DNA of 64,000 nucleotides, taken from assembly GCA_030390025.1 (NCBI GenBank), contig CM059437.1, forward strand, positions 13,330,001 to 13,394,000, in the 5' to 3' direction. The notes under the pieces were generated by a model. It did no database searches. It was not told where the DNA came from and saw only the letters and a program-made list of their open reading frames with translations. Shown one piece after another: positions 22,722 to 36,838 of this stretch (position 1 is the stretch's first letter; each line of letters begins with the position of its first letter). A program made the translations under genes and the position numbers. Source of the DNA: Squalus acanthias. Its lineage: Eukaryota.

Positions 22722-22913
<192 letters not shown>

Positions 22914-26228: not shown

Positions 26229-27052
26229 GGGCCGGAATTTTGCGGAGGGTCAGCAGGCACGATTGGTGGCGGGCCAGGTGGGAAAGTCCCCCCCCCCCCC
26301 CGCGGTGGGTCGGGATCCCGCTGCGAACCCGCCGCCACGCACCTTTCCCAATGTCGGGTCTGTCAGCGCTGAGCAGACCCGACACGCAGCAGTGGGGGAC
26401 CCAATTCAGCTAATTAGTGGTTTGTTTAGAGCCACTTGAGAATGATTTTCAGCTCACCTTTTGCATTTGACAGCTCGCCCACAGGGTCCACACTGGTCGT
26501 TGACCATGTCCGTCAAGCTGAGGCGGGAGTTCAGTGGCCATTGAATCAGCTGTCGATTTGACAGCTTCAAATGTAAAGTAAAAGCTCCCACCTTACAGAA
26601 ATATCTTCCCTCAGCCACAAGCTCTTCCTCACTGCATTTCCACAACAGATTCACCATGCTGCGAGTCTTTACACAAGTCTCCATCCAGTCTGACCTCATT
26701 ACCTCTCTCACCATTGACAGATCACTTCGGTCACCTCTATTTCACCTGCCATCTATTCCACCAGCATGGGTGCCCTTTATACTCTCTCACCTTGGTCCTC
26801 AGAATCCCACCACAATCAGCCCCAACACCACCAACCTTCTCCACAATCAACTGATGCTGCACAGAACAGAGGGCATCAGCACCCAACCACACTGCTGCCC
26901 GGGAGGCCTCACCATGGCCAGATTTACTTCACTTGATGCTATACACCCTAGCTGCCACATGATGCGCCAGGTTGGCACCACCCCACACCAACATGCATCC
27001 CTACAATGCCCAAGCAATTCCTTTCACACTCATCACCATTGCGGGGGGTACC
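26229..27052. mobile_element. Truncated Harbinger-type DNA transposon remnant
   Basis: Begins with gggccggaattttgc (same TIR type as the MITEs) and GC-rich subterminal sequence; no matching right TIR seen. Confidence 0.5.
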
Positions 27053-27055
27053 ATT

Positions 27056-27759
27056 GGGCCGGATATTCCGTAGGGACATTGGAAATGCCGGTTTCAGGCA
27101 TGCACTGGAAACCGGCATTTCCGATCTGTCAAGAAAGCTCGACAGATCCTCCGGCTGCCAGGGAGAAGGGCCTCTGCGGGCAGATAGTTCTGCTTTTTGG
27201 AGACCCTCCCCCCGCAGAAAACCCTTACAATTCTTGCGCCTGGTAAAAGCAGGCATAAAGCCTGCTTTTACCAGGATAAGAGTTGAAAAAAAGTTTTTTA
27301 AAAATTTCCACTGATTTATCATTTAAAAATACTTTAAAGAAAGTTAAGTTTATTTTTAGCCCCGTTAAAAACTTTAATTATTTTTTTCAAAAATTTAAAT
27401 TTGTTTAAAAGTTAATTTATGTAATTTCAAGTTATTTTAAAAATGTGATGTTTAAAAAAAAATTTATTTGAAGTTTTACTATGTTCTGGGGGTGATCTCC
27501 ATTCATATAATTGACAGGTCTTCCTGTCAAATATATGAAGGGAGATTCCCTTCTCTGATTAGCTCCCCATGGCCCACGTGATCCCAGGGACGCTGCGAAC
27601 TACCTGCGCCTCTGGGATACGTGGGCCCTGCACACCGGCAGTTTGGAGAGGCCCAGCAGTGGAACTGTGCGCCTCCTGGGAGCCCTCAGGTAAGGGCGCA
27701 GATTTTTCCAGATCGTAGGCCTCCGCCCGCAGGAGGCCTGCGATCGGAAAATACGGGCC
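27056..27759. mobile_element. PIF/Harbinger-type MITE, related subfamily
   Basis: ATT|gggccggatattccg ... cggaaaatacgggcc|ATT: 15-bp imperfect TIR and perfect 3-bp TSD; internal similarity to the 9893 and 13614 copies. Confidence 0.88.
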
Positions 27760-27774
27760 ATTATGTCTCACTAT

Positions 27775-28169
27775 TCTTTTTTTTTTTCTTCGTTCATGGG
27801 ATGTGGGCAAGGATAGCATTTATTGCCCATCCCTAATTGCCCTTGAGTAGCTTGCTGGGCCATTTCAGAGGGCAGTTAAGAGTCAAGCACATTGCTGTGG
27901 GTCTGGAGTCACATAGGCCAGACCAGGTAAGAATGGCAGATTTCCTGCCCTAAAAGGACATCAGTGAACCAGATGGGTTTTTACGACAATCTGGTAGTTT
28001 CATAGTCACCATTACTGATACTGGCTTTTTTTTAAATTCCAGATTTATTTAATTAACTGAATTTAAATTCCCCAGCTGCCGTGGTGGGATTTGAATTCTT
28101 GTCACCAGATTATTAGTCCAGGCCTTTGGATTACTAGTCCAGTAGCATTACCACTATACTACCGTTCCC
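27775..28169 (-). mobile_element. tRNA-head SINE with LINE-derived tail, copy 2
   Basis: Colinear with 12723-13179; poly-T on the plus strand at the tail end. Confidence 0.85.
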
Positions 28170-30444
28170 GATACACCACATCCCTGTAGGTCGAAGTGAG
28201 AGTCATGACATTCATAGTTACTTGTTACAAGTCTTCAGAATATAGGCCTTCCTGGGGGCCAGTATGGTCATTACTGCAAATTGCTGGAATCCCAGTTGTT
28301 TTAACCAGCTCTTTCAAAAGGCATAAAAGTAAATTGAGATCGACAGATCATCCATTACTACTGCCCTAATACTGGAGCAGAACAATGGCAGCCTCTTGTT
28401 CAAGAGCATAGTAATGTCATCAAGTAGCTACATCTACAGAACATAGCACCCACTGCCTTCAAGTGATAATTGGCTGGAACATGTCTGCCATAAATGTTTA
28501 CTGCTCTTTCGATGCCACAAGAGTGTGGATTGACTGTTCCAATGAGTTCAGTTTGCACCAACATTAGATCTGTTGTGTGCTGAGACATAGGGATGAATAA
28601 GTTCCAGTTTATATACCACACCACCGTAATGTTGTCAGTCATGACCTCCCCTGTGCCACTGTGCATTTTGTTCCTGAAAAATTACTCTCAGCCAAGTCTG
28701 ATTACATCCTATGCATCAGAAAGGAGATCTCACTTTCTTCTGGACAGGTTTTTCCTAGATGGGCTCTGTATCCTCAGTACCATCTGGTAAGGGCGAGGAA
28801 AGGATTCCTCTTCCTGATCTCCATCTAATGTCTCGCATGGTCGTTAAAACAACACAAGACCAGATTGGGCTGCAATTACCCATCGTCAAATAACCTGCAA
28901 CGTTGTCTAGACTCTCATACCTGGGTGAGGAAACAGTGGGCTATTGTTATCCATGGAACCATAACCTAACAATGAGTCATCTTTAGAAGAGATGGGGAGA
29001 AAACTGGAAAAATAAAATCTGGACCAAAAATTTTCCAGATACACATTATGGGAAGGGAATTGTGAACGGTTATCAAAAGAAAAATCAGTGAGAGCTTCCT
29101 CGGGTTCTGTACAACAGGTCTGCTATATACAACTAAAAAGGAAATAAAGGTTTGCCTCAGATCATTGCTGCCACCATCTTCGAGCAGAATGCAGAGAGAT
29201 TGCTTCTTCACCAGGGACAGAGTTTCTTGAGGACTCAATCCCTGGTGATTTTTTAACTCCCCTCACATGCATCTCCCCCACCCTCATACATAGTCGACAA
29301 ATACCCAACTGCATATGGAAGCTGAATGAACAGTTTTCAAAAATAAAACTCAACACACAAATTTAGTCTCGAAATACACATTCTGGATCCCTAAACTGCC
29401 AATTACAGGAATTTTCAAGTATTTCCGCTGGTGTTTCATGGGTAAAGAAAGAAGTACTGGCAAATACAGACAAATGCTATAAAATCAAAATACCAAATTT
29501 AAATAAACAAGGCCTTATTTCCCCTCAACTCCAAGAACAGCAGTTGCATTTTTAAATCAGTTATGTAGCTTACTGGCAGCATACTAGGAGTTAAAGGGAA
29601 ATGTAATCAAACGTACAGGATTCCACACAAAACTTGCCCTCTTCAGCAGTTTTAAAGCATAAAACATAGAAACTAAAATCGAGATCCCAAAACTGTATAG
29701 CTACCCCCTTTATAACAATTAGGATTATGAGACAATTTAGGGTGCTACAAAGTTATCAGTGGGTAGAGTTTCTGGCTTTGCACCAACGTTAAACTTGTGT
29801 AGTGTAAATCAGGTGTGAAGGCTCTGAAGCAAAGTGGAGTGAGGCCCACTTCTCCAGGGTGGTCGCACTCCGCTTCCTTGGATGTCAAGACTCTAGATTC
29901 AGGCTGCATGCACATTCTAATTGCAGCATCAGTATATAAAGCGAAAATGCTTTGCCCCTGTGATAAAATTGAAGTATAAATGCATGCTTAGGTAAACACA
30001 GTTCCAGTAATGCCAAACCCACAGTCTCATAAATCACGAGACAAACTCTTAAAAAAATCATGAGATTTGGTAAGAACTCATGAGTTGCTATTTTTTCCTG
30101 ACCCCTCGCTGACCTTTGCCCCTGGACAGGAAACACATTCCGCGACCTTTGCTCCCAGAAAGGAAGCGCATTCGGCCATCATTAAAGACATTTTGGCTGT
30201 CACGACAAAAGTTGACATTTTTCCCCTGCAAAATCTTCCTCCACAGCCAATGCTTTAGGTACACAAGAAACCAGCTCAGTCATCCACTCATGCTACACCA
30301 GCTAACTGTCAAATGGTACACTAGATTGAACCAATTCTGCCTTTCAACTTCATTTACCACCTTACATAGTTCATTTGAGCGAACAATTGTTCCAATGTGT
30401 TTTACAGGAGATCTGGAAATGTTGGACAGGAACCAAGAGAGAAG

Positions 30445-30790
30445 TCATAGTAAGTGATCAAAGGCAAAGCCAGTGCTGGGTTGAGGCTTTTGAAAGTACA
30501 AAATAGGCAATGAGGTAGAACAGTTTGGGGGGGATCCCCCAGAGAGCCGTGGCATGGTGGCTGAACGCTCTGCCACCAATGGTAGTGTAGAGTGGGACGA
30601 CAAACAGGAACTTAAAGTGAAAAGAGAAGATGGATTCTGGAAGGGAGAGCGGTTGGAGATTGCAGAAGTAGCACGGAACAAAGCCATGGGAAGAGCTGTA
30701 AAGGAGAGCAATTTTTAACTTGTGCTGGAGGTTAGGGAGCCAATGCACGTCGACAAGAACAAGAGTGAATGCATCCTTAACTGGGGTAAA
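30445..30790 (-). mobile_element. Old L2-like LINE 3' remnant
   Basis: Minus ORF MHWLPNLQHKLKIALL...TTIGGRAFSHHATALW matches L2 motifs LHWLP and GGRAFS..AP.LWN. Confidence 0.7.
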
Positions 30791-31048
30791 ACAACCATGA
30801 CTAAATAAAATTTGAAGTAATTCTTAATAGAAATGGAAAACTGAAATAAAGCAATTCATTTTTTTTTAAATGTAATATGACAATGTATAGTGCTCCTTTG
30901 AAAACTCCTGAAGCGGATACTTATAAATAAAAAAAGGGCGAAAGTCTCAGCATAGATGAAACGAAACAAGTACTGCGTCTGACACTTATGGCAACTAGAG
31001 GCCCAGCCCCTCTGGCTTAGCAAGAATGTACTTCTGCCCATTACTTAC

Positions 31049-31200
31049 CGGTCAACTTTAAACCGCTCATGTTTGGCTTTTAGGGCATCTATGTTCGCCT
31101 CTTTGTCGGTGAGGAGCTTCTCGAGCTTGGTCATAGTATTTTTGGGAAGTTTGGCAAGTTCAGCACAATCCAGCAGCTGCTGCAACACAGCCGCCGCCAT
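31049..31200 (-). pseudogene. TPR: Orphan exon 1 of nucleoprotein TPR (gene fragment nested in a SPOP intron)
   Basis: ATG at 31200 (aacATGG) gives MAAAVLQQLLDCAELAKLPKNTMTKLEKLLTDKEANIDALKAKHERFKVD + CG|gtaagt. Aligns with the recalled human TPR N-terminus [50 protein letters not shown] and ends where TPR exon 1 is recalled to end. No convincing TPR exon 2 found. Pseudogene status is inferred. Confidence 0.85.
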
Positions 31201-31540
31201 GTTACCACCTGCGTCTGCAACACCCGCCCGTCCGCCAACATAACAAGGCGCTTGTTAAACACGCATGTGACACAAGCCGTGCAGCGCCCTCTGGAAGTTA
31301 GAGTCCTTTGTAGGTTTAGGTTCCTTTCTTTAAAGAGAACAAACAACATCTCCCAGCATGCCTCGCAAGTTGGACTCCTCTGCATAGTGTATGGCGGATC
31401 GCGCACTTCCGGTTTGCTCAGCTGTCTACAATATTTCAGAAGTTTAAAATTTAGAGTTTTGAGGTGAATCGCAAGATCGCGAGTTGGGCTGAATTTTCAT
31501 TACAAATTATGTGTCTTGCTATTAAATCGCAAGAGTTGGC
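31201..31540. promoter_or_regulatory. CpG-enriched housekeeping/bidirectional-type promoter upstream of the TPR exon
   Basis: CTCF-like cagcgccctctgg (31282-31294), ZNF143/SBS-like acaacatctcccagcatgcc (~31343-31362), YY1-like atggcgg (31391-31397), ETS cacttccggt (31404-31413), TCGCGA-type gatcgcgag (31475-31483). Confidence 0.65.
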
Positions 31541-32457
31541 ATTACTGCAGTTCCACTTTGGGTTAACATTTCATGGTTGAGTATATTTTCAAACTTATTC
31601 CTCCCTAGAGTATTTAAAAAGAAAAGCTGCACATTTTGAAAATTATTCTTCAGTACTTAAAGGGTTATTTTTATACCACCAAATTTACATGAATCAGAGG
31701 GGTAGGTATTTCAACCCATATATTAATGGTTTTTCCATCAAGCAGATCAGGATTTTGATCTAGAAAAATAGAAAAAAGTAAAACCTGCACCACTTGTTTT
31801 GGCAAATATTTCTGCAAAAGTTGTTTCAAGGAAGGCACAAGCTACATACTTCTGCCACTGGTCTTGGTTCATCAATCCAGGGATCTTACCAATTGTACTT
31901 GCAATTCAGTGAACTCTACAGATCACGGGCATCCATGCACAAGTTTCTAAAATCGACTTCTGTTGCAAAATATTTCCAGAAAATGCATACGGAAAAAGTA
32001 TATTGCAATTTAAAAAAAAAATCTACTACATTCCCTGAAAATATTTCTACCAGGACTGTTCAGCCAAATCAAATAGTATCACAGGCTCAATTGGAGATTT
32101 TCAGACAGCTCCAAACAACTGTTTTAAAGTCCTTTACTTAAGCTTCTACCCAAGTTTTTTTTTTAATGGGTGTGGGGCTAGAGGGGGAAAAAGGGAAGAC
32201 GAGGATAGTAAGATCATAGCAACTGTGAGGCACTGCAGCTTTAACAGCAAATCTGTGCTGGTATCCATTATCTATGCAGTATTCTGTGGTCTAAAAAGTA
32301 TGCAATATATGCAACAATGCTTTTAGGGATTTACAAGGCACTAATTTAGTAGTTCTGATGAAAGCCCTAAATCACGAGGATGCAGCCTACCAGGAGAAAG
32401 AATTGCTACCTCAACCTGACATTTATTACTCCTGTATTACATAGTCTGCAATTAATT

Positions 32458-32822
32458 TAGAATCATGGAATGGTTACAGCACAGTAGGAGGCCATTTGGC
32501 CCGTCGAGCCCGTGCCGGCTCTCTGCAAGAGCACTTCAACTAATCCTAATCCCCCGCCCTTCCTCCGTAGCCCTGCAATTTTTTTCTCTTTCAGGTACTT
32601 AACTAATTCCCTTTTGAAAGCCACAATTGAATCTGCCTCCACCACACTTTCAGGCAGCAGCGCATTCCAGATCCTAACCACTCGCTGAGTAAGAAAGTTT
32701 TTCCTCATGTCGCCTTTGGACCTTCTGCCAGTCACCTTAAATCCGTGTCCTCTGGTTCTCGACCCTTCCGCTAACGGCAACAATTTCTCTCTATCAACTC
32801 TGTCTAGACCCATCATAGTGAT
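32458..32822 (-). mobile_element. Young CR1 LINE 3' fragment
   Basis: MMGLDRVDREKLLPLAEGSRTRGHGFKV...; reverse complement closely matches 17900-18250. Confidence 0.92.
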
Positions 32823-32939
32823 CTGAACATGAAAATTTGAAAGAAAATATTTTCCCACTATTATGATACAAACTAACCATGCAACTGGCTGCATAAAATA
32901 GGTGAAAGAGTGAGAATAGGATCTGAAGGCATTAATTTA

Positions 32940-33300
32940 GTGAATGCAGACTCAAGCACATCATTCCAGCCATCATCAGCACAAACATGCAGTGTGCAGG
33001 CCACCAGATCATTGATTCAATGATGTAGGATGTGGTTTCTACTTGTCCGCAAGGACATTTGTTGTCAGCATAAAGGCTCCACAGGAGAAAATTTTTCTCC
33101 TTGTTCAGTTTGAAAGCGGTTGAGATGCGCCCAACTATGAGGTAGCCAGTTGAATGCTGTTTGACGGTCTGTAGAGTCGCAGAAGATATGGCGATTTATA
33201 GGAGCATCTGCTACCCACTCCACATCAGCGAGTTGGTAGGCATGTAGCATCCATATGAAATATTTTATTTCCACGCACCAAGTATATTGGCATTACCTTC
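32940..33300 (-). mobile_element. Old Ingi/Vingi-like non-LTR retrotransposon C-terminal remnant
   Basis: Minus strand gives RQTAFNWLPHSWAHLNRFQTEQG, then KCPCGQVETTSYIIE: the LNRxRTG plus CxCG..T..HI zinc-knuckle signature. Confidence 0.55.

Positions 33301-36688: not shown

Positions 36689-36838
<150 letters not shown>

Follow-up and report, generated by a model that had tools for sequence, protein, structure and literature searches.

The closest described counterparts of the element analysed here are transposons that carry pieces of host genes. In 100 animal genomes, Tan et al. (2021) reported four multicopy Pack-TIR cases, in frog and alligator, with a median cargo of 224 bp, and the main text of that study models multicopy Pack-TIRs as the outcome of template switching followed by transposition (FoSTeST; PMC8277862). 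One frog Pack-TIR in the same account is a hAT element with a piece of the CAPSL 5' UTR, and it has spread to three chromosomes. Similarly, bat Helitrons are described as carrying a promoter, a first exon and a partial intron (PMC4224331). At the locus studied here, we conclude with good confidence that a non-autonomous transposon copied the start of the shark TPR gene and spread to eight places, and that the copy in an intron of SPOP is likely decaying. The word 'shark' is absent from the main text of PMC8277862, and our literature search found no description of the element or of Pack-TIRs in sharks; the family may already be catalogued in Repbase or Dfam.

The window, that is, the whole 64,000-nt stretch of Squalus acanthias DNA that was analysed (G000:C13:13330001-13394000, from a genome of 3.7 Gb), contains eight coding exons of SPOP between 50602 and 6960, with 86-100% protein identity to bird SPOP fragments. 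On the same strand, within a 13.8 kb phase 0 intron (36697-22914) that separates the last MATH exon from the first BTB exon, lies a 152-nt ATG-to-donor stretch of 50 codons plus 2 nt. It has no stop and stands directly 5' of a gtaagt donor (31048-31043), just as the initial annotation had read it. In a homologue search with 58 candidates, the translation hit just two proteins, both from Callorhinchus milii and both bearing the name Nucleoprotein TPR, at 73% identity along 96% of its length (E 3.5e-9 and 3.8e-9), so that its recognition as the N-terminus of TPR was correct. This identity derives from the homologue search and not from Pfam, where a scan with the exon alone gave no family match. 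The annotation had recognised no further TPR exons, and tblastn of the window with both TPR proteins likewise returned only the exon and one match at E 7.8. The same intron also holds high-copy repeats (26416-28323 and 32140-33093), which dominate the depth of RNA-type contigs and which, judged by their frames, are ordinary LINE and MITE-like pieces.

The true TPR gene lies on another contig, C15, in keeping with the earlier remark that TPR and SPOP are unlinked in human. Its exon 1 is at 59635839, nine further exon matches follow within 24 kb and a TPR_MLP1_2 domain is found 39 kb downstream of exon 1. That domain family (PF07926) gave one match genome-wide among the 150 of 180 candidates that were scored. 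The parental exon 1 has 154 nt and ends in phase 1, which bears out the 2-nt loss that had been suspected from the human exon; the loss is common to the window copy and its orthologue in a related species (organism C) and is not seen in the other aligned copies. The annotation had itself named mis-assembly and an interleaved, real TPR gene as alternatives. Neither was found, and together we give them practically no weight: both junctions are bridged by contigs from an independent DNA study of the same organism and from two other organisms, while the full TPR gene, with the single PF07926 match, is on C15. A bidirectional TPR/ODR4 promoter, with the two genes head to head as in human, is unsupported, as the ODR4-like exons (G000:C15:57528341-57563171) are 2.1 Mb away and on the same strand as TPR.

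The exon is almost certainly the cargo of a transposon (Table 1). The element has 12-nt inverted repeats starting with CAGT and an exact 6-bp duplication outside them, and its TPR cargo of about 1.2 kb consists of promoter, exon 1 and the start of intron 1; the region 30180-31365 (about 1.19 kb) matches the parent at 81-84%. An interior-only DNA search, in which all 12 candidates were scored, had 13 matches. Most of them are accounted for by eight copies and by the parent, itself split into two pieces; two short hits, of 35 and 61 bp, were set aside from the copy count. The eight TPR-carrying copies lie on seven contigs (C13, C2 twice, C8, C12, C5, C20 and C3, the last in two pieces). Four of them are complete with both ends and have four different 6-mer duplications (three exact, one with 5/6 matching), and the other four are partial within the 9.9 kb fetched.

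Table 1. Positions of the TPR-carrying element, its parts and its surroundings (window coordinates unless a locus is given)
Feature	Position	Strand	Basis or remark
SPOP exon upstream of host intron, end of MATH domain	36698..36825	-	protein alignment; intron phase 0
Right target-site duplication copy, 6 bp	31548..31553	+	identical to 29999-30004
Whole non-autonomous TIR element, 1,543 bp, carrying TPR fragment	30005..31547	-	sharp ends common with C8, C2 and C12 copies
Transposon 5' end, ~200 bp, TIR at 31536-31547	31346..31547	-	family-end search
5' capture breakpoint, ACTACANNTCCCA-type motif, 1 mismatch in this copy	31342..31361	+	shared by transposon end and TPR promoter, 17/20 nt
Captured TPR 5' leader and proximal promoter, second THAP11/ZNF143-type motif degraded	31201..31341	-	parent alignment
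Captured coding part of TPR exon 1, 152 nt (parent 154 nt)	31049..31200	-	homologue search, parent alignment
Captured start of TPR intron 1	30186..31048	-	~84-86% identical to C15 parent
Transposon 3' end, ~180 bp, TIR at 30005-30016	30005..30185	-	high-copy family end; 40/40 scored candidates matched
Left target-site duplication copy, 6 bp (cagttc)	29999..30004	+	identical to 31548-31553
SPOP exon downstream of host intron, start of BTB region	22736..22913	-	protein alignment
NSMCE4A-carrying elements	L079:2273-3995; L094:498-2774; L093:475-2063		donor candidates L092 (C7), L095 (C14)

The initial annotation had proposed an orphan gene-start module, translocated into SPOP, and had advised a search of the same genome for the parent and the breakpoints. 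The parent was located on C15, and DNA searches revealed the sharp element ends, which make the module the cargo of a TIR transposon present in eight copies. Had the TPR start reached SPOP in a single segmental duplication or translocation, and come to lie next to transposon ends by chance, promoter, exon and intron would equally have been copied at the DNA level. Against this reading stand eight copies on seven contigs, whose two breakpoints agree and whose target-site duplications are individual; on these grounds it is refuted, and we regard it as extremely improbable. The annotation's argument for duplication at the DNA level rather than retrocopying holds, since the promoter and 860 bp of intron 1 came along with the exon, and a processed pseudogene is ruled out for the same reason.

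The element belongs to a large family whose members have many different interiors. For the 3' end there were 1023 first-look candidates, of which 40 were scored and all 40 matched; for the 5' end there were 504, with 40 scored. Both ends are present in 25 elements, and 19 of these are flanked by a 6-bp duplication with no more than one mismatch. As five of the 25 had been preselected for such a duplication, the unselected set is 20, and here the count is 14 (11 exact, three with one mismatch). None of the 25 has an exact duplication of 4, 5, 7 or 8 bp. Families of hAT elements with 6-bp duplications have been named hAT6 (PMC12730594, citing Kapitonov and Jurka, 2007), a name also mentioned in passing in PMC3942097. 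The shark element resembles them, under the definition given in PMC12730594, in its 6-bp target-site duplication and short TIRs, and differs in that no transposase with these ends was found among the loci searched, which leaves membership unproven. We therefore use hAT6 as a provisional label, somewhat more likely than not to be correct. The IS3EU superfamily also makes 6-bp duplications, with ends TAYGG..CCRTA (PMC12730594), and is ruled out by the CAGT..ACTG ends of the shark element. The start of the TIR resembles Blackjack/Tip100-type hAT ends. Helitrons have neither TIRs nor target-site duplications, and both are present here, which rules them out.

The search for an autonomous partner covered three sets. 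No family ends were found beside hATC loci in 30 fetched of 150 hATC-domain matches (from 639 candidates), and no hAT domain occurred in 313 interior frames scanned, part of which were 99 frames picked from 165, plus two of L094. In 20 extended family loci there was no autonomous partner, the only transposases being Harbinger-type DDE_Tnp_4 frames at two loci, inside or beside family members (L076:42-5016 and L071:162-1424), which we read as nested or neighbouring elements. At L076 both family ends and an exact 6-bp duplication surround such a frame. Many G000 contigs contain copies of a different hAT family; dozens of these score identically and have open frames of up to 660 aa, which suggests that this family has been active recently.

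How the element acquired the TPR fragment is best approached from the breakpoints. The element agrees with the TPR promoter at 17 of 20 nt across the 5' breakpoint, with seven exact at the switch point, and the parent and the three element-only ends scanned all have ACTACANNTCCCA there without a mismatch. This sequence is described as a THAP11 site overlapping the ZNF143 SBS2 motif (PMC3627581). In 29 of 30 loci the motif belongs to the element, whose own sequence continues after it (in two of the 29 only past a short deletion or nested insert); at the remaining locus, which carries TPR, the sequence switches to TPR exactly at the end of the motif. As a control, 30 pieces of TPR intron share at most 16 of 20 nt with the element end, a thin margin from the 17 observed; for capture guided by the motif, more weight rests on where the switch falls. 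At the 3' breakpoint there is a 3-nt microhomology near 30183-30185. The 40 kb fetched around TPR on C15 contained no element ends, which argues against end bypass. Capture by template switching at the shared THAP11/ZNF143-type motif is thus the mechanism that we consider likely, and it agrees with the model put forward for multicopy Pack-TIRs in PMC8277862.

From the element ends, TIRs, duplications, copy number, donor locus and breakpoints observed, three steps may be reconstructed. First, synthesis on an empty element under repair or replication would have left that element at its THAP11/ZNF143-type motif and resumed at the matching one in the TPR promoter; having copied the promoter, exon 1 and 860 bp of intron, it would have come back to the element through the 3-nt match. 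Secondly, a transposase acting in trans, probably hAT6-like, would have mobilised the TPR chimera. Finally, one copy would have landed in SPOP before the split from the related species sampled, lost 2 nt and drifted neutrally since. Intron 1 of the parent has an extra stretch of about 270 bp that is missing from all aligned copies, and this insertion most likely took place after the capture. It is palindromic-looking (L050, about 59636215-59636484) and could serve as a marker for dating the capture across species.

A second cargo bears on the mechanism. One family member (L079) matches Nse4_C at E 2.2e-15, and elements on C1 (two) and C3 carry NSMCE4A exons joined, while an intron-containing NSMCE4A gene lies on C14 (L095). 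There are three clear copies and two deleted-looking relatives (L026 and L049); L094 has nearly the whole NSMCE4A coding region and an exact 6-bp duplication. The spliced sequence in the same family raises the question of whether the TPR cargo arose from RNA, with an unspliced TPR transcript reverse-transcribed into the element, rather than from DNA template switching, and retroposition into DNA transposons has been described for bat Helitrons (PMC4224331). However, the TPR piece reaches about 165 bp beyond the ATG on its upstream side and starts in the promoter motifs (although transcription may begin still further upstream), has no poly(A) and no inner duplication, and shows microhomology with the element at both cargo ends. 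Furthermore, the NSMCE4A elements also carry 460 bp of genomic flank, which on C7 follows the poly(A) of an NSMCE4A retrocopy, so that this cargo, too, looks like DNA capture. No element ends were found in 17 kb at that retrocopy, and capture, as DNA, of the existing retrocopy with its flank would be the simplest reading. Origin of the TPR cargo from RNA is accordingly most improbable, and DNA template switching remains the preferred route. The TPR and NSMCE4A cargos have the same orientation relative to the element.

A search for further coding cargo in the 313 interior frames gave nothing beyond NSMCE4A domains, fragments of reverse transcriptase, Harbinger matches and a single low-complexity frame. 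A GC-rich interior without a Pfam match (L157:1950-2700 and relatives) is common to about 15 or more members, and 355 bp of it match two C27 loci without element ends (L167 and L168); it is possibly a third capture. Three more interior groups, some of them CpG-rich, lie behind the same 5' end (L146/L153/L161; L152/L160; L138/L141/L143/L145).

The initial annotation had left the fate of the SPOP-intron copy as either decay or co-option, and here the evidence favours decay. Of the changes counted in the exons of seven copies against the column majority (two of the 50 codons had none and were omitted), 33 are nonsynonymous and 12 synonymous (pN/pS 0.79; binomial P 0.48 in the neutrality test); the parent exon has six and seven (pN/pS 0.25). 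The window copy alone has four and two (pN/pS 0.58), too few to judge; its exon differs at 7/147 sites, the intron part at 57/856. It retains 10 of the 21 parental CpG sites in promoter and exon, with TG/CA at six. The first THAP11/ZNF143-type motif has one mismatch, compared with none in the parent and in the C8 copy, and the second is no longer found at two mismatches. The upstream promoter claimed earlier is therefore present but not intact, with both motif copies degraded. The window frame is still open, with ATG and GT donor, and in four of the eight copies start codon and frame have likewise survived. This speaks against complete decay, yet is plausible at such low divergence.

The insertion is retained in organisms A, B, C and E, which is a further point against decay. 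Contigs span the two junctions in a second study of organism A (X5, with 0 and 1 differences) and in organisms C and E, and the right junction is bridged in organism B; no empty or pre-insertion site was seen in organisms C and E, which have both junctions. The exon itself is also present in organism C, with at least seven differences (four nonsynonymous and three synonymous among those listed), about 5%, as in the whole contig (54 differences over 1,069 nt). The donor there keeps its GT and has a 1-nt deletion and one substitution. Over the exon in organism E there was no cover, to which we attach no weight. Since the insertion is found in related organisms and differs at the contig-wide rate, it is old, real and not visibly constrained. 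We found no purifying selection on exon, donor or promoter, at low power for a single copy.

The RNA evidence consists of assembled contigs from four runs guessed to be RNA, in which the SPOP exons have no cover. Each run has a deep contig across the exon, and in every case its letters are those of the parent (depth 40-602, one contig of 6.5 kb). Among the contigs listed, those with the window copy's letters have a depth of 2-6, like the flanking intron; one of 175 nt, in X6, runs unspliced across the donor. No copy-specific transcript spliced to SPOP was seen among the contigs listed, which is weak evidence, as rare or tissue-specific splicing would be beyond its reach. With either exon length, joining the TPR donor to the first BTB exon is predicted to shift the reading out of frame, with a stop after 58 codons, or after 52 with the ancestral length. 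An in-frame fusion was thus never on offer, and a TPR-SPOP fusion protein is rejected by frame for the next exon, the only one computed.

A functional alternative is co-option as an internal SPOP promoter. Transcription would start in the captured promoter, and the TPR donor would be spliced to the first BTB exon; translation would stop at the end of an upstream frame of 58 codons and, taken up again at either of two methionines, would give SPOP without its substrate-binding MATH domain. The position is suggestive: the copy is on the SPOP strand exactly between the MATH and BTB exons, keeps ATG, open frame and donor, and is common to related species, and the upstream frame ends before two in-frame methionines early in the BTB exon. 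Pack-TIRs are, moreover, often transcribed with their hosts, according to the main text of PMC8277862. However, the promoter motifs and CpGs are eroded, the donor is weakened in organism C, the exon is no better conserved than its surroundings, and no copy-specific contig rises above intron depth, one being unspliced across the donor. We consider co-option very unlikely. Given the pN/pS of 0.79, the eroded motifs, the out-of-frame splice, the weakened donor in organism C and the deep contigs of the parent only, the copy is very probably decaying and not working, and for SPOP itself the insertion is probably without consequence.

Beyond SPOP, such copies can lead the annotation of TPR, and the mapping of its reads, astray. 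A breakpoint on a motif shared by transposon and host promoter offers a concrete, testable way in which promoters might be picked up by transposons. Furthermore, with the TPR start in eight copies and the NSMCE4A retrocopy, at least two amplified cargos occur in one family, where multicopy capture has been reported as rare in animals.

Several known systems share parts of this picture. Like the bat Helitrons described in PMC4224331, the shark family combines a gene-start module as cargo with amplification of retrogene pieces by a DNA transposon; the Helitrons differ in being rolling-circle elements without TIRs or duplications, with copy numbers of up to a thousand. Plant Pack-MULEs, as summarized in PMC8277862, are similar in that one family has many interiors, interchromosomal donors and GC-rich gene starts, but they belong to the plant Mutator superfamily, whereas the shark element is a vertebrate one with short TIRs and 6-bp duplications. 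It is conceivable, though we think it unlikely, that the family is a vertebrate counterpart of Pack-MULEs, which would use its own THAP11/ZNF143 motif as landing homology for capturing housekeeping-gene promoters and scatter modules of promoter, first exon and donor, some of which, possibly including the SPOP MATH-BTB copy, might start truncated host transcripts.

The nearest relatives are the animal Pack-TIRs. As in these, host DNA lies between the ends of one TIR family, the parent is on another chromosome (C15) and is not flanked by the element within the 40 kb fetched, the target-site duplications are distinct (four different 6-mers in the four complete copies), and the breakpoints show microhomology (17/20 nt, seven exact, at the 5' end and 3 nt at the 3' end). 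Compared with the cases in the main text of PMC8277862, the shark element is set apart by a cargo of about 1.2 kb that includes promoter, coding exon and donor, by its eight copies, its 6-bp duplication and a breakpoint that is a transcription-factor motif, and by a family with at least two multicopy cargos. Judged by the sequence features compared, the element is a multicopy Pack-TIR, of a kind that is known but rarely documented, in which the motif at the breakpoint is a notable detail.
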